A DNA stretch of 64,000 bases from Oscillospiraceae bacterium (GCA_015063685.1 SVTR01000014.1:2717-66716), one strand, 5' to 3'; counted from the first letter of the stretch, positions 56,763 to 61,950 are shown. Numbers and translations: made by a program. The notes: generated by a model not told the origin, from the letters alone.

Positions 56763-57758
56763 TTACTCATTGTTGCCAACTTCTGTTTCTTCAACACTTG
56801 GTCTTTGAGGTCTTTCGTGATGACGATCATCTTCTTTTTCTAACAACTCATCAATGGTATTATGCGACTCATTGTAAGAAGGTGTTAATTCGGCTAGAAT
56901 TCCTTCACTTCCCATAAAAAGCATATCACTGCAATTGCCATAATAAATACTTGGGATATCATTATCTCGTGAGATTCCTCCTGATAGTTGTATATACCCA
57001 TATCTGAACCTATTAGAATAATCATGGCCAACCATCAAAAGTGTTCCAAAAAAGCTTTGCCTTACCCCATCTGAGACATTCTCATATCCAATGGTGTCTA
57101 TCATTCGATTAATTTGTTCAACTCCAATATCTGAACACATACCTAAATCATTTCTGAACTCACCTTTTGCAAATCCTGTAACAAATTTGTCACTACTTGT
57201 TAAATCCTCTGAAATCAATGCAAAATCATGGTCCTCTGTTATAACCAAAATAGACTTATATTGAGGATTAAACTGTCTTTCATCTAGGTATATGTCTAAT
57301 ATAACATTTTCATAATAATCATAAGCCATTTTCCCTAACCAAAATGTATATCGATCTGTTGCCGAATCAACTCGCTCAGGCCCTTCCATTTTCTTAAGAA
57401 GGTCATTAAAATTTCGCTCTAAATATTCTCTAGATGACATAGTAACAAAAACATCTTCAAACTGTAATCCAGCAAAAAATCCATTTAAACCATACCTTTC
57501 CAGCTCCGGATTTTTAATTGTTGGATATACTTCTTGCTCATGTTGATTTGAAGATTCATTTTTGTCCTCAGTATGCTCTCCCTCAACACTTCCCACTGCT
57601 GTTTCATTGGTCGTCCCATGATTACCTTGCCCAGGATTATTTCCCAACTCATCACAGCTTGCAAGCATTGATGTAAGCTGTAACACAGCAAGAATCAATG
57701 GCAATCCCCTTTTAATAAAGCCACCAAGAACCCTTGGAGAGCTGAACTTTGTTTTCAT
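56763..57758 (-). CDS. Hypothetical lipoprotein on a low-GC island (331 aa)
   Basis: Lipobox MLASC and AAGGGGAAG SD. No recognisable domain. The local GC is far below its neighbours (22 of 60 in the sampled line at 57001). Confidence 0.6.
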   Translation of the reverse strand: MKTKFSSPRVLGGFIKRGLPLILAVLQLTSMLASCDELGNNPGQGNHGTTNETAVGSVEGEHTEDKNESSNQHEQEVYPTIKNPELERYGLNGFFAGLQFEDVFVTMSSREYLERNFNDLLKKMEGPERVDSATDRYTFWLGKMAYDYYENVILDIYLDERQFNPQYKSILVITEDHDFALISEDLTSSDKFVTGFAKGEFRNDLGMCSDIGVEQINRMIDTIGYENVSDGVRQSFFGTLLMVGHDYSNRFRYGYIQLSGGISRDNDIPSIYYGNCSDMLFMGSEGILAELTPSYNESHNTIDELLEKEDDRHHERPQRPSVEETEVGNNE

Positions 57759-57913: not shown

Positions 57914-59848
57914 TTATCTTCTCTTCTCGGCGATCTCCATCATGATCTCGCTGATGAACTGATCCACGGGCATGACGCCCTTCTCACCGTCCTTGCGGGA
58001 GCGGACGGCCACGGCGTTCTGCTCGATCTCCTTACCGCCGACGACCAGCATGTAAGGCACCTTCTCCTGCTGAGCGGCGCGGATCTTGTAGCCCACGGTG
58101 TTGTTGGACTTATCCACCTCCACGCGCATACCCATCTGGGTCATGCGGTCTGCGATCTTCTGGCAGTACTCGATCTCATCGTCGCCCATGGGCAGGAACT
58201 TGGCCTGGACGGGAGCCATCCAAGTGGGCAGGGCGCCTGCATAACGCTCGATGAGGTAGGCCAGGGTGCGCTCGTAGCAGCCCAGGGAGGTACGGTGGAT
58301 GATGTAGGGCTTCTTCAGCTGACCGTCGGAATCCACGTACTCCATGCCGAACTTCTCGGCCAGGAGCATGTCGATCTGGATGGTGACGATGGTATCCTCC
58401 TTACCGAAGACGTTCTTGTACTGGATGTCCAGCTTGGGGCCGTAGAAAGCAGCCTCGTCGATACCGATGGTGTACTCCACACCCAGGTTGTCCAGGATCT
58501 GACCCATGACGGTCTGGGCGTGCTCCCACTGCTCAGGAGTACCCTCGTACTTGATGCCGGCTCTTGCGGGATCCCACTGGGAGAAGCGGAAGGTGCAGTT
58601 CTCCAGCATACCCACGGTGTCGAGAACGTACTTGGCCAGCTCCAGACAGCCCTTGAACTCCTCCTCCAGCTGCTCGGGGCGCAGGACCAGGTGACCCTCG
58701 GAGATGGTGAACTGACGGACGCGGATCAAACCGTGCATCTCACCGCTGTCCTCGTTGCGGAACAGGGTGGAGGTCTCGCCCAGTCTCATGGGGAGGTCAC
58801 GGTAGGAGCGCTTGCGGTTCAGGAAGACCTGGTACTGGAAGGGGCAGGTCATGGGACGGAGGGCAAAGCACTCCTTGGTCTCATCGTGGGGATCACCCAG
58901 CACGAACATACCGTCCAGGTAGTGATCCCAGTGGCCGGAAATCTTGTACAGCTCGCGCTTGGCCATGAGGGGGGTCTTGGTCAGCAGGTAGCCGCGCTTC
59001 TGCTCCTCGTCCTCGATCCAACGCTGAAGGGTCTGGATGACGCGGGAGCCCTTGGGCAGGATGATGGGCAGACCCTGGCCGATGGATTCCACGGTGGTGA
59101 AGTACTCCAGCTCACGGCCCAGCTTGTTGTGGTCGCGCTTGCGGGCCTCCTCCACGGCGGTGAGGTAGGCGTTCATCTCGTCCTTGGTGGGGTAGGCCAC
59201 ACCGTAGACGCGCTGGAGCATCTTGTTCTTCTGGTCGCCCTTCCAGTATGCGCCGGTACATTGGGTCAGCTTGAAGGCCTTGACGGCACCCGTGGAGAAC
59301 AGGTGGGGGCCTGCGCAGAGATCCACGAAGTCGCCCTGACGGTAGAAACTGATGACGGCATCGGCGGGCAGTTCCTCGATGAGCTGGACCTTGTAGGGCT
59401 CGTCACGCTCGGTCATGAAGGCGATGGCCTCCTCCCGGGGCAGCTCGAAACGCTCGATCTTGTGGTTCTCCTTGACGATCTTCTTCATCTCGCCCTCCAG
59501 AGCCTTCAGCACATCGGGGGTAAAGGCCACGTCGGAGTCGAAGTCGTAGTAGAAGCCGTTGTCGATAGCGGGACCGATGGTGAGCTTGGTGTTGGGGTAG
59601 AGACGTTTGACCGCCTGGGCCAGGATGTGGGAGGCGGTGTGGCGGAAGACGTGCTTACCGTCGGCATCCTCAAAGGTGAGCAGCTCCACGTCGGCGTCGG
59701 CGTCCAGGATGTGGGTCATGCCCACCAGCTTGCCGTTTACGTGGGCGGCAATGTGGGCGCGGGTGACCAGCTCGGCGGCGGCCGCGGCGTCAAAGACCGA
59801 CAGGGGGGCGTCGAAGGTCAAGGATTTTTCTTTGAAATTGATGTTCAT
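57914..59848 (-). CDS. thrS: Threonine--tRNA ligase
   Basis: 644 aa with TGS, the second additional domain, class II core (HGLIRVRQFT, FRNEDSGE) and an anticodon-binding domain. GGAGG SD 7 nt before the ATG. Confidence 0.92.
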   Translation of the reverse strand: MNINFKEKSLTFDAPLSVFDAAAAAELVTRAHIAAHVNGKLVGMTHILDADADVELLTFEDADGKHVFRHTASHILAQAVKRLYPNTKLTIGPAIDNGFYYDFDSDVAFTPDVLKALEGEMKKIVKENHKIERFELPREEAIAFMTERDEPYKVQLIEELPADAVISFYRQGDFVDLCAGPHLFSTGAVKAFKLTQCTGAYWKGDQKNKMLQRVYGVAYPTKDEMNAYLTAVEEARKRDHNKLGRELEYFTTVESIGQGLPIILPKGSRVIQTLQRWIEDEEQKRGYLLTKTPLMAKRELYKISGHWDHYLDGMFVLGDPHDETKECFALRPMTCPFQYQVFLNRKRSYRDLPMRLGETSTLFRNEDSGEMHGLIRVRQFTISEGHLVLRPEQLEEEFKGCLELAKYVLDTVGMLENCTFRFSQWDPARAGIKYEGTPEQWEHAQTVMGQILDNLGVEYTIGIDEAAFYGPKLDIQYKNVFGKEDTIVTIQIDMLLAEKFGMEYVDSDGQLKKPYIIHRTSLGCYERTLAYLIERYAGALPTWMAPVQAKFLPMGDDEIEYCQKIADRMTQMGMRVEVDKSNNTVGYKIRAAQQEKVPYMLVVGGKEIEQNAVAVRSRKDGEKGVMPVDQFISEIMMEIAEKRR

Positions 59849-59877
59849 AGGTTTTACCTCCAGAAATATATGGAAAT

Positions 59878-60396
59878 TTATTTATTTTTTAATATTTTTT
59901 CGCGGGACTTGATCTGTTGCTTATATCCTATGTGCTGTGCCGCGCATGCAACCACACCGTACACGATCATACACACCACCATACCCAACAGGAAGTATCC
60001 CTGCGACGTATCTACATACGGCGCATCGCCGTTGCCGCCATGACAAAACAGCACGCCCAACCAAAAGCCCGCGCCGCTGATGAAAGACACAAAATGAAAA
60101 GCAAGTGCCAACATCAACTGCAAGACAAGTACGGGAGTCAAAGCTAATATCGTTGCCAACATATCCACGCGCTTTTGTTTATAGGCAATACGGCCCGAGG
60201 TCACACAAATGCTCCCCGACGAAATCAATAGACATATCATCGACTCTATAATGCGGCAAACCAATGCATCAGGAAACAGCTTCCACAGTAGCGATTGGAG
60301 CACTATGTCGGCAATCGTTCCGAGAAACAGGCCCAAAACAACGGCCAAAAAATATTCTCCCATCATTGGAAATATTTCTTTTTTCTCGATTTTCAT
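59878..60396 (-). CDS. Hypothetical polytopic membrane protein (172 aa), low GC
   Basis: 4-5 predicted TM helices. 29 nt upstream of thrS and 15 nt downstream of the RAYT gene. No family recognised. Confidence 0.55.
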   Translation of the reverse strand: MKIEKKEIFPMMGEYFLAVVLGLFLGTIADIVLQSLLWKLFPDALVCRIIESMICLLISSGSICVTSGRIAYKQKRVDMLATILALTPVLVLQLMLALAFHFVSFISGAGFWLGVLFCHGGNGDAPYVDTSQGYFLLGMVVCMIVYGVVACAAQHIGYKQQIKSREKILKNK

Positions 60397-60411
60397 GCAT
60401 TTCCCTTTTTG

Positions 60412-60936
60412 CTAATTACGCACTGATTTTTTGTCATCATAATACCACGCACGTGGATTATTGATAATATATTTTCTTGTTTCATAGAGATCGTCTTGAT
60501 TCCGAATCATATGATCGAAATAACTTCGTTGCCAAAAAGATTTGTTATACGGCTCGTATATCCCTTCCTTTACACCGCGAATATATTCATTGGTTGTCAT
60601 AGTCTTGAACCAATCTACGACGTCCTGTAGGGGCGACCCTGTGTGGTCGCCCGTAAAAAACAGAATAGCGTGAATATGATCGGGCATAATAACATATTCA
60701 TCAATTTCCGTGTTCGGAAACTTGTTTTCTATTTCAAGCAACCATTTTTCAATCATCCGATCAGGCTTGTTCGGGCGACCACGCAGGGTCGCCCCTACGG
60801 AATGATCCCACACGATTTCGCCAAATAAGGATTGTCTGTTATGAGTACATATCGTAATAAAGTAGGATCCTTGCTTTGAGTAATCGAGTCCTTTTACTCG
60901 CATCCGTTTTCTTTGCGGATATTGAGGGTTCTCCAT
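60412..60936 (-). CDS. REP-associated tyrosine transposase (RAYT; Y1 HUH, IS200-like superfamily)
   Basis: YFITICT beta-strand, HUH motif PDHIHAIL and catalytic Tyr context WQRSYFDHMIRN (compare the RAYT pattern RRYWEHxIRD). GGAGGGA SD before the ATG at 60936. The upstream part of the track ORF only reads through REP copies. Confidence 0.8.
   Translation of the reverse strand: MENPQYPQRKRMRVKGLDYSKQGSYFITICTHNRQSLFGEIVWDHSVGATLRGRPNKPDRMIEKWLLEIENKFPNTEIDEYVIMPDHIHAILFFTGDHTGSPLQDVVDWFKTMTTNEYIRGVKEGIYEPYNKSFWQRSYFDHMIRNQDDLYETRKYIINNPRAWYYDDKKSVRN
60627..60798. repeat. REP doublet embedded in-frame in the RAYT coding sequence
   Basis: GTAG-GGGCGACC-CTGTGT-GGTCGCCC on the plus strand (60627..60652, encodes GDHTGSPLQ) and its inverted partner at 60773..60798 (encodes VGATLRGRP). 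They are 25 of 26 complementary to each other. Confidence 0.85.
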
Positions 60937-60996
60937 ATTCTTGTATCCCTCCTTTTCCACATTTGCTTTGAAAACTATCACGGACACCATGATTCT

Positions 60997-61107
60997 GTAG
61001 GGGCGACCCTGTGTGGTCGCCCGCAAAAACAAACGCGAAATAGTATTATAGCATACGATAATTATCACAAGGGTTGAACACGGGCGACCACGCAGGGTCG
61101 CCCCTAC
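60997..61107. repeat. REP doublet between the T-box terminator and the RAYT start
   Basis: 60997..61022 is identical to 60627..60652, and 61082..61107 is identical to 60773..60798. The 59-nt AT-rich spacer contains TGCTATAAT on the minus strand (61053..61045). Confidence 0.85.
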
Positions 61108-61116
61108 AGATACGCT

Positions 61117-61351
61117 ATAAAACAAAACCCCGAAGGCTATCACAAAACAGCCTCCGGGGTGCATTTTTACAAAACACACGGTTCCACCCGAATATTTCAC
61201 TCATGGGCGCGCCCAAAAAAGCGCAGTTGCCCTATTCAGTTGGGTCACAAAAGGGCGGTACCTGCCCGAGCTTTTGCGTGGGAACTTACAGCCGATCCGT
61301 TTGGAAAGGTTCCCTTCTCTGTCGCTACCCCTCGGGGGCATATTCCTTTTG
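61117..61351 (-). promoter_or_regulatory. T-box riboswitch leader (candidate Thr ACC specifier)
   Basis: Stem I base CAAAAGG (61351..61345) / CCUUUUG (61254..61248), AG bulge AGCGA (61326..61322), ACC followed by a purine at 61259..61256, T-box GGGUGGAACCGUG (61189..61177) with a UGGAACC bulge in an antiterminator, and a competing terminator 61159..61128 plus a U-tract. Confidence 0.8.
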
Positions 61352-61373
61352 GTGGGCGGATGCCCGTAATTGA

Positions 61374-61796
61374 TTACTTTTTGCGATTATAGGCCGAACG
61401 GGGATTCATGATCTCGCGCCAGTCAAGATCGCCGCGATCCAGGGCCATGATCAGCACCTCGGCGGTGGCGATGTTGGTGGCCACGGGGATATTATACATA
61501 TCGCACATACGGATCAACTCATGCTCAGTCTCGTCATAGGCGGCGGTGGGACGGGTATCGCGGAAGTACAAAAGCACGTCGATCTCGTTATAAGCGATAC
61601 GGGACGCGATCTGTTGCTCGCCGCCCTGCTCGCCCGCCAGGAGCTTTTCGATGGTCAGGCCGGTGGCCTCAGAGATGTACTTTGCCGTAATGCTGGTAGC
61701 GCAGAGATTATGCTTACTCAGAATTCCACAATACGCAATACAAAACTGTGTCATGAGTTCTTTTTTCAAGTCATGTGCAATGATGGCAATTTCCAT
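61374..61796 (-). CDS. mgsA: Methylglyoxal synthase
   Basis: 140 aa: MEIAIIAHDLKKE..., GEQGGEQQIAS, IDVLLYFRD and NIPVATN. Confidence 0.8.
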   Translation of the reverse strand: MEIAIIAHDLKKELMTQFCIAYCGILSKHNLCATSITAKYISEATGLTIEKLLAGEQGGEQQIASRIAYNEIDVLLYFRDTRPTAAYDETEHELIRMCDMYNIPVATNIATAEVLIMALDRGDLDWREIMNPRSAYNRKK

Positions 61797-61950
61797 AAGC
61801 TACCTCTCTTTTCATTTTGCGTTACGGCGTATGGGAAATCCTCCCCCACACTACCAAGTTATGGTCTATTATACCACATCTTCACCCCATTTGTCAATGA
61901 TTTATACAAGAATTTTCAAAAAAAGTTTTATTTTTTGTTGATTTCATATC

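Follow-up and report, generated by a model that had tools for sequence, protein, structure and literature searches.

We analysed a 64,000-nucleotide (nt) stretch of DNA from an Oscillospiraceae bacterium (GCA_015063685.1 SVTR01000014.1:2717-66716; hereafter the window), in which a T-box riboswitch leader is separated from the threonyl-tRNA synthetase gene, thrS, by a transposase gene and a membrane-protein gene. On the minus strand the order is a promoter, mgsA, the structured leader, a doublet of repetitive extragenic palindromic (REP) elements, an open reading frame (ORF) for a REP-associated tyrosine transposase (RAYT), a membrane-protein ORF, and thrS (Table 1). The distance from leader to thrS is 1.27 kb. 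Only 15 nt separate the RAYT from the membrane ORF, and the 29 nt between the membrane ORF and thrS contain a GGAGG Shine-Dalgarno (SD) sequence; a terminator scan found no terminator-like site between the leader terminator and thrS. This order, the ORF lengths of 174 and 172 amino acids (aa), both gaps and the lack of an intervening terminator had all been proposed in a first-pass annotation and are confirmed here, as is the low GC content of the intervening genes (RAYT 0.41, membrane ORF 0.46, against 0.61 for thrS). At third codon positions (GC3) the values are 0.42, 0.54, and 0.87, with host genes at 0.67-0.87. The position of mgsA is syntenic in relatives.

Table 1. Features of the mgsA-thrS locus, in order of the minus strand; the last column gives nucleotide identity between the window and three metagenome contigs of the same arrangement
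Feature	Coordinates	Strand	Remarks	Identity (%)
Host genes				89-94
Sigma-70-type promoter, TTGACA-18-TG-n-TATAAT	61868..61897	-	upstream of mgsA; 12/12 hexamer match and TG extension	
mgsA, methylglyoxal synthase, 140 aa	61374..61796	-	NCBIfam NF003559, 120.8 bits (cut-off 84); Pfam MGS	
Structured leader, 235 nt	61117..61351	-		85
T-box Stem I, 104 nt	61248..61351	-	clade covariance model match, covariation	
Stem I base helix, CAAAAGG/CCUUUUG	61351-61345/61254-61248	-		
AG bulge, AGAGA	61320-61316	-		
Stem I distal helix	61314-61309/61285-61280	-		
Stem I distal loop, GGCUGUAA	61293-61286	-	preceded by an extra small hairpin	
Specifier, ACC	61259-61257	-	next base is G, 61256	
Stem III-like hairpin	61205..61232	-	between Stem I and antiterminator; from fold and leader alignment	
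Antiterminator	61153..61192	-	fold -12.2 kcal/mol; 7-nt bulge UGGAACC as expected	
T-box sequence, GGGUGGAACCGUG	61189..61177	-	UGGA at 61186..61183; motif invariant in relatives	
Intrinsic terminator	61117..61160	-	15-bp stem 61160-61127 and U-tract UUUGUUUUAU; -27.3 kcal/mol, z=-6.6	
REP doublet (REPIN-like)	60995..61110	-	inverted pair, 97% complementary (repeat finder); 59 nt upstream of RAYT start codon	97.8
Extended -10, TGCTATAAT	61045..61053	-	in loop of REP doublet; candidate T-box-independent promoter for RAYT, membrane gene and thrS	
RAYT-like Y1 (HUH) transposase, 174 aa	60412..60936	-	Pfam PF01797 Y1_Tnp, E=9e-10, above cut-off	98.9
In-frame REP copy inside RAYT ORF	60772-60798	-	encodes VGATLRGRP	
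In-frame REP copy inside RAYT ORF	60628-60651	-	reverse complement; encodes GDHTGSPL	
Membrane protein, 172 aa	59878..60396	-	4-5 helices	97.7
29-nt gap before thrS				100
thrS, threonyl-tRNA synthetase, 644 aa	57914..59848	-	Pfam tRNA-synt_2b, HGTP_anticodon, tRNA_SAD	

The leader carries the elements of a T-box (feature definitions after PMC7778990). Stem I, GGGUGGAACCGUG, the antiterminator and the terminator are all found where the first-pass annotation had placed them; its AG bulge, given as AGCGA, is instead the neighboring AGAGA. The UGGA within the T-box sequence would pair with the UCCA of a tRNA 3′ end. A single strand, CACCCCGGA, is used by both the antiterminator and the terminator, so that the two structures are mutually exclusive, as had been supposed. 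A 15-nt linker and the single Stem III-like hairpin are all that lies between Stem I and the antiterminator, and we found no Stem II, IIA/B pseudoknot, F-box, or CCGUUA there. This reduction is shared by the clade, whose leaders lack Stem II, the IIA/B pseudoknot, the F-box and any obvious kink-turn (K-turn), and many of which have an extra hairpin within the Stem I distal loop. Leaders of the L003 type seem to be without a clear Stem III as well, with ~45 nt from the specifier to the T-box motif (e.g., L003:3767-3986). More distant relatives (L057, L066, L078, and L079) keep the full set, including Stem II and CCGUUA.

The first-pass annotation had named a search with the Rfam T-box model RF00230 as the check on this leader. 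Neither RF00230, whose gathering score is 93 bits in Rfam 15, nor any other Rfam 15 family has a match at gathering anywhere in the window; with lax filters RF00230 gives a local match of 14 bits only, to model positions 184-216, which correspond to the antiterminator. We compared the locus with 80 thrS loci from uncultured Oscillospiraceae/Eubacteriales genomes, and none of 15 of these tested against RF00230 reaches 93 bits. When run in E-value mode, the same model aligns end-to-end with the relatives' thrS leaders at 30-87.5 bits, the score dropping from 87.5 to 36.7 bits (E from 1e-17 to 1e-4) with increasing reduction of the leaders. These full-length alignments below threshold indicate that the cut-off is too strict for the clade, and a direct RF00230 call was therefore dropped as a decisive test.

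What carries the identification instead is a Stem I covariance model built from 36 relatives, with the window and its near kin left out. Searched against both strands of the window, this model (R1) has a single match, at 61362..61239 on the minus strand, which is full length (39.6 bits, E=5e-8) and aligns ACAGAGA with its AGAGA bulge, the GCUGUAAG distal loop and UACC-G. Plain MAFFT alignment with RNAalifold recovered only two of the Stem I helices; the register of the distal helix was then set by script and the leaders realigned with a covariance model. Across 63 leaders aligned to R1, 89.9% of pair cells are standard, compared with 60.6% in shuffled alignments and 37-56% when the partners are slid, and the covariation score reaches 0.83, where shuffling gives 0.28 and sliding no more than 0.24. 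Double-sided, compensatory changes occur in 14 of the 15 Stem I pairs. Outside Stem I, most of the 80 loci have a conserved GGGTGGAACCGTG ahead of thrS, usually 85-150 nt before the start codon, which agrees with the earlier statement that such a leader normally abuts thrS.

Specificity for threonine, read in the first-pass annotation from ACC followed by a purine, is borne out: the specifier position holds ACC and a purine in 63/63 leaders upstream of thrS, and in L066 the RF00230 alignment itself puts ACC there. No tRNA gene is present in the window and no tRNA-Thr in the L001-L060 loci. The one tRNA-Thr found, the tRNA-Thr(CGU) of clade member L076, which lies beside a UGGA-type thrS leader in another genome and is not the GGU isoacceptor, has the U73 that UGGA would call for and an encoded CCA (its end being ...ACCAGC-U-CCA). 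The match of the clade model together with the covariation thus rescues the T-box call despite the failure of RF00230, and we identify 61351..61117 on the minus strand as a genuine class I (terminator/antiterminator) Thr T-box. As judged from the same leader comparisons, it is the ancestral regulator of thrS in this Oscillospiraceae clade and a reduced version of the T-box family.

The base of Stem I lies just 22 nt beyond the mgsA stop codon. Transcripts had been expected to start near 61380, but the promoter scan detects no promoter there or elsewhere between the mgsA stop and Stem I; the nearest, and the sole promoter-like site ahead of the leader, is that upstream of mgsA (61897..61868), one of nine TGNTATAAT sites in the window (0.93 expected) and the likely source of leader transcripts. 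The T-box thus most probably attenuates an mgsA-thrS transcript from within and is not the 5′ end of an RNA begun near 61380. Some relatives (e.g., L008) have a separate promoter between mgsA and the leader.

The DNA between the terminator and thrS varies greatly among close relatives. L001 and L002, whose ThrS is 95% identical, are the nearest reference genomes. Their alignment with the window runs from glyA past mgsA and along the leader as far as 61119 and resumes from thrS onward; what lies between is unrelated in all three genomes. Homology with L001/L002 and with L081 breaks at the end of the terminator region, 61119 being its last base, and the variable point lies directly after the terminator U-tract (GGGGUUUUGUUUU). 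The slot holds a DUF559 nuclease-like gene and a 143-aa Cys-rich ORF in L001; a 136-aa orphan ORF in L002; a DUF362/4Fe-4S gene in L034, L038, and L049; and a 162-aa membrane ORF, unrelated to the window's 172-aa protein, in L067. The 172-aa membrane gene occupies it alone in L086-L088 and L092, behind DUF559 and a long inverted repeat in L089-L091, behind a 118-aa ORF in L084 and L085, and behind the RAYT in the window and in three metagenome contigs (L081-L083) that share its RAYT-membrane-thrS arrangement. As these alignments read, the post-terminator gap in this sub-clade is a variable gene slot, mostly with the 172-aa membrane gene beside thrS, and the arrangement in the window is one state of that slot and no one-off event.

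Nucleotide identity with the three contigs of the same arrangement is far from uniform (Table 1). A sliding profile shows a tract of 97-99% identity from ~61100 to ~59850, flanked by sequence of 79-94%, with edges that are sharp at the terminator and at the thrS start. These values indicate that the whole content of the slot was replaced recently, as one block, and the exchange would most simply have occurred by homologous recombination, with the leader and thrS as arms. Compared with L081/L082 over windows of 150 nt, the gene thrS itself (57914-59848) is a patchwork of 89-99% identity, and L081 and L082 are identical upstream of thrS yet different within it, which suggests frequent homologous recombination inside this essential gene. 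Not every slot block is young: that idea was abandoned because in L001 and L089 the DUF559 block shows as much divergence as its flanks. The DUF559 slot gene is followed by an inverted repeat of ~250 nt (CGGCTACTCATCCGTC...GACGGATGAGTAGCC) with internal palindromes (L089:3720-3990, L090, L001:3300-3530), which looks like a MITE-like (miniature inverted-repeat transposable element) or structured element that would move with the DUF559 gene.

The first-pass annotation took the RAYT and the membrane gene together as an insertion, and this stands for the RAYT only. The RAYT is foreign in composition and lineage-specific, being absent from L001/L002 and from L086/L092. By its composition and distribution, the segment formed by the REP doublet and the RAYT (61110..60412) is a recent, low-GC, lineage-specific arrival and the newest layer of the slot. 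The membrane gene, in contrast, has 24 close homologues, all of them upstream of thrS.

These 24 close homologues of the membrane protein (60-95% identity) are all unannotated, and in the contexts recovered the gene always directly precedes thrS, with mgsA and the same T-box leader ahead of it, whether or not the RAYT is present. Paired identities of ThrS and the membrane protein are 97/96, 98/89, 94/77, 91/70, and 89/77%. This divergence in step with ThrS, together with the constant position, suggests a resident, fast-evolving operon partner of thrS. The evidence therefore points to a resident gene of the sub-clade, though one recently co-exchanged with the RAYT as a single block, and the proposal that the two genes form a single foreign cassette is partly rejected: the membrane gene occurs at thrS without the RAYT and tracks ThrS in its divergence, yet was recently exchanged with it. 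Many polar residues are invariant in the alignment, as is characteristic of a real protein under purifying selection, which we take the ORF to encode.

No Pfam, NCBIfam, or PADLOC match was found for the membrane protein. Its AlphaFold2 (AF2) model has a predicted local distance difference test (pLDDT) of 90 and a predicted template-modeling (TM) score (pTM) of 0.84, and has no fold match in the PDB; the best is an energy-coupling factor (ECF) S-component (E=1.2, TM 0.24), so that a role as a Thr transporter or ECF S-component was dropped for want of support. A profile search finds ~48 distant full-length relatives, in contexts other than thrS, for example behind an XRE regulator or between hisZ and rpsB. 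Family searches, fold comparison, and gene contexts gave nothing that ties the family to threonine.

The transposase ORF is best matched in NCBIfam by REP_Tyr_transpos (NF047646, REP-associated tyrosine transposase) at 71.6 bits (E=6e-20), below the equivalog cut-off of 80; its IS200 score is 31.7 bits (cut-off 55). The HUH motif H87-I-H89 and Tyr156 are invariant in the alignment of the RAYT family, for which we found 2656 homologues, some of them named RayT by the Joint Genome Institute (JGI). The RAYT start has a good SD, AAAGGAGG. Upstream of it, each REP of the doublet comprises 30 nt, with a GTAG foot and GGGCGACC-N6-GGTCGCCC, the two copies being inverted and 57 nt apart; as RNA the doublet would form one long hairpin (-73.7 kcal/mol, z=-10.6). 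The REP palindrome with its GTAG foot occurs four times in the 64 kb, against 0.02 expected: twice in the doublet and twice within the RAYT ORF. No copy was found elsewhere in the window, downstream of the RAYT stop codon, or in the 80 related thrS loci.

The two copies within the RAYT ORF lie in frame, an odd feature for a transposase gene. The peptides they encode, VGATLRGRP and GDHTGSPL, are kept across the RAYT family, and one homologue (P0063) has tandem amplifications of the second. This conservation indicates that the intragenic REPs are intrinsic to the gene, and for this reason we rejected their origin by secondary insertion of a REPIN (a REP doublet forming a hairpin). The RAYT literature that we searched contains no description of a transposase with its own substrate hairpins in its coding sequence.

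More than 120 metagenome contigs contain exact copies of the 26-nt REP GTAGGGGCGACCCTGYGTGGTCGCCC; they come from human and termite guts, freshwater, sediment, and soil, and their GC contents range over 0.32-0.63. Nearly all copies (86 of 88) are on contigs without a RAYT homologue, their flanks are not conserved (the contigs include L094-L173), and they are often paired with inverted sister palindromes (GGGC-NN-CC...GG-NN-GCCCCTAC). Conservation of a REP to the exact nucleotide over such different hosts is striking. By this distribution the 26-mer is a real dispersed REP, though the window shows no dispersal in this genome.

Two further observations concern the same elements in other genomes. 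The terminator stem of the L003 thrS T-box (L003:3920-3960) is CCCCGGGCGACC-TGTG-GGTCGCCCGGGG, with arms, GGGCGACC and GGTCGCCC, that match the RAYT-associated REP exactly in its core; this terminator could be a REP co-opted for the riboswitch, or the likeness could be coincidence. In L214 (L214:2293-4304, the context of homologue P0031), hsdM and the genes that follow it in a type I restriction-modification operon have a co-directional RAYT of this family between them, with GTAGGGGC-type REPs directly downstream of it, a further instance of a family member within a host operon.

On the other side of thrS, directly downstream, lies a 331-aa lipoprotein-like ORF (56763-57758, minus strand) of GC 0.36 and GC3 0.26, without a Pfam, NCBIfam, or PADLOC match. 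It is absent in L001, L002, and L081-L083, where a C_GCAxxG_C_C gene directly follows thrS. Given the RAYT upstream, thrS thus has strain-specific, low-GC insertions on either side.

How thrS is transcribed in this setting can be approached from the slot variants. In 9 of 10 variants thrS starts 19-55 nt after the preceding gene, with only an SD between them, and no convincing intrinsic terminator was found in any slot variant examined. A second T-box or a strong promoter directly before thrS, which the first-pass annotation had recognized as fatal to its proposal, is present in neither form: R1 has its single match at the leader, and the 29-nt gap leaves no room for a promoter. The short gap and the lack of a terminator imply that transcription of thrS, which lacks its own promoter and leader, has to come through the slot. 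The simplest slots (L086 and L092) have no promoter-like element, which implies that thrS is transcribed there only via the T-box. In the window, the extended -10 TGCTATAAT is present where it had been reported, at 61053..61045, and is conserved in L081/L082. Sites of the type TGNTATAAT are ~10-fold enriched in the window (nine against 0.93 expected), several of them with a perfect TTGACA -35.

We favor, with a probability of roughly 60%, a dual input to thrS, in which read-through gated by the T-box would be joined by a weaker constitutive promoter. Transcription from the mgsA promoter would reach the T-box. With tRNA-Thr charged, it would end at 61127-61117; with tRNA-Thr uncharged, the antiterminator would form and the polymerase would read on past the REP doublet into the RAYT, the membrane gene, and thrS. 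The cassette's own extended -10 (61053..61045) probably adds a basal, T-box-independent transcript that would start in the REP doublet. On balance, thrS would be partly buffered from its riboswitch without being fully uncoupled from it, and the transposase would gain starvation-linked expression. The first-pass annotation had offered two readings, that charging of tRNA-Thr gates the inserted genes together with thrS, or that the insertion has uncoupled thrS from the riboswitch by supplying a promoter; the sequence evidence is compatible with both acting together.

Several points weigh against a dual input. Read-through, the internal promoter, and the relative strengths of the two are all inferred from sequence. 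The -35 of TGCTATAAT is weak (TTGTGA, at a spacing of 14 nt), this spacing is not optimal and lies outside that required by the promoter scan, which left the site uncalled. The hairpin of the transcribed REP doublet (-73.7 kcal/mol) could pause or block the polymerase, or be cleaved. Since the RAYT block is recent, an intact T-box is no proof of selection since the insertion. The T-box itself is not called by RF00230, and the U73 observation comes from a non-cognate isoacceptor (CGU) in another genome. Finally, genes in Firmicutes are strongly biased to one strand, so that finding all eight kinds of slot gene co-directional is weak evidence; as a proof of dependence on read-through, co-directionality was down-weighted for this reason, and the census of gap lengths and terminators was used instead.

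Were TGCTATAAT inactive, the RAYT, the membrane gene, and thrS would be expressed by read-through only, and the transposase would be strictly gated by the charging of tRNA-Thr. Such pure control by the T-box would account for the lack of a canonical -35 at proper spacing and of a call by the promoter scan. It also has parallels: other members of the RAYT family lie co-directionally inside host operons without a promoter of their own (one 23 nt behind a gene, another between hsdM and hsdS), and in the L086 and L092 slots, lacking a promoter-like element, thrS is wholly T-box-dependent. We nevertheless consider it unlikely, because the ~10-fold over-representation of TGNTATAAT means that most instances should be real promoters, and because TGCTATAAT is conserved in L081/L082.

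Full uncoupling is the opposite case and, to us, a distinctly improbable one. Here the REP hairpin would block read-through or cause the read-through RNA to be cleaved and degraded, thrS would be expressed from the cassette promoter only, and the T-box would be a relic that terminates the mgsA transcript. The doublet does form a hairpin of the 30-bp class (-73.7 kcal/mol, z=-10.6) and contains a credible extended -10, and with the cassette so recent an intact T-box need not be in use. But no U-run follows the REP hairpin and no terminator is called there, and in both lineages that carry the RAYT every functional element of the T-box is intact, despite 15-21% divergence of their leaders. Processing of the Bacillus subtilis thrS leader by an endonuclease, described by Condon and Putzer, is reportedly compatible with expression, which we also count against this case. 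A weak constitutive promoter for an essential aminoacyl-tRNA synthetase (aaRS) would, moreover, discard a mode of regulation that is conserved in at least 29 of 34 Firmicutes (PMC2494555).

Two alternatives question the premises rather than the transcription. That the whole RAYT-membrane-thrS arrangement is an ancestral operon, with no insertion at all, would fit its presence in three other metagenome contigs and the residence of the membrane gene in the sub-clade, and is very hard to sustain given that no other sub-clade genome and none of the 80 related loci has the RAYT, whose GC3 is 0.42 where host genes have 0.67-0.87, and which is 98.9% identical where thrS is 94% and the leaders 85% identical. 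That the leader is no T-box, its likeness being due to chance or to a degenerate remnant, would explain the missing RF00230 match at gathering (14 bits, local only) and the lack of Stem II, F-box, and clear K-turn, but is effectively refuted by the match to an independent clade model, the strong covariation against controls, the invariance of ACC and GGGUGGAACCG, the graded RF00230 scores of relatives (up to 87.5 bits), and the intact terminator/antiterminator switch.

The reduced leader has implications of its own. A gut Oscillospiraceae clade whose thrS T-box falls below the Rfam threshold implies that riboswitch censuses undercount T-boxes there, and a non-glycyl T-box working without Stem II would test current ideas on the need for that domain. 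Prediction of operons and regulons that equates the specifier of a T-box with the function of the downstream gene would wrongly give the RAYT and the orphan membrane protein roles in threonine metabolism. If read-through occurs, control of the RAYT by tRNA charging would be a concrete physiological input for REP/REPIN mobilization. More speculatively, and with doubt prevailing, the slot might be a hitch-hiking site, in which selfish or orphan genes (the RAYT, the DUF559 nuclease, small membrane or Cys-rich proteins) lodge co-directionally and inherit starvation-induced transcription, the cassettes being swapped via the leader and thrS arms and expression of the RAYT being tied to the charging of tRNA-Thr. 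A polar mutation or a terminator that silenced a slot gene would then abolish thrS expression too, and genome rearrangement would be coupled to amino-acid starvation through the RAYT.

Among known systems, the leader is closest to the class I thrS/thrZ T-boxes of B. subtilis and other Firmicutes (RF00230), the family in which control of thrS is so widely conserved (PMC2494555). It shares with them thrS as the regulated gene, the AGAGA bulge and GGYUGNRA distal loop of Stem I, a Thr specifier that ends in C and has a purine after it, and an antiterminator, with GGGUGGNACCG and a 7-nt bulge, in competition with an intrinsic terminator. It differs in its score (14 bits against a gathering score of 93), in the extra hairpin of the distal loop, in the absence of Stem II, the IIA/B pseudoknot, the F-box, and an obvious K-turn, and in its setting, directly after mgsA, without a promoter of its own, and with 1.27 kb and two unrelated genes before thrS. 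Absence of the Stem II domain has been described for glycyl T-boxes (PMC7583486), and the glyQS type has the same succession of Stem I, linker/Stem III, and discriminator. The specifier here is ACC (Thr) and not GGC, however, so that the usual explanation of Stem II loss by a strong GGC:GCC duplex is not fully applicable, and the closest relatives (L003 type) also seem to be without a clear Stem III.

The transposase resembles those of the REP/REPIN-RAYT systems (E. coli TnpA-REP, the Pseudomonas RAYTs, and Group 1) in being a ~170-aa HUH/Y1 protein (PF01797) with an adjacent inverted doublet of GTAG-foot REPs, and in having a REP that is also scattered, with no transposase, through many genomes. 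Bertels et al. (2017; PMC5581495) describe Group 1 RAYTs from Clostridia, with a weak link to REPs and possibly more frequent horizontal transfer, traits that fit the RAYT of the window. Unlike these systems, it scores below the NCBIfam equivalog cut-off (71.6 against 80), has no REP outside the cassette in the 64 kb, carries two in-frame intragenic REPs that are conserved family-wide, has recently been exchanged between genomes rather than being anciently vertical, and lies in the leader-to-gene gap of an essential, riboswitch-controlled gene.

In multi-gene or internal T-box operons, such as gltX-cysE-cysS of B. subtilis and the T-box-regulated transporters, a T-box likewise follows an upstream gene and gates several genes, including an aaRS; T-boxes often control membrane transport proteins too (PMC2494555). 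The transposase and orphan membrane protein that are co-regulated here differ from these in having no detectable link to threonine. A full-text literature search found no paper that combines a T-box, thrS, and a transposase, nor any mobile gene between a T-box and an aaRS gene. The parts of the locus are thus all of known kinds: a thrS T-box, a RAYT with its REPs, and a multi-gene T-box operon. What is unusual is that the Thr T-box lacks Stem II and is missed by Rfam, that a mobile gene lies between a T-box and an essential aaRS gene, and that the gap between them is a modular, recombining slot.

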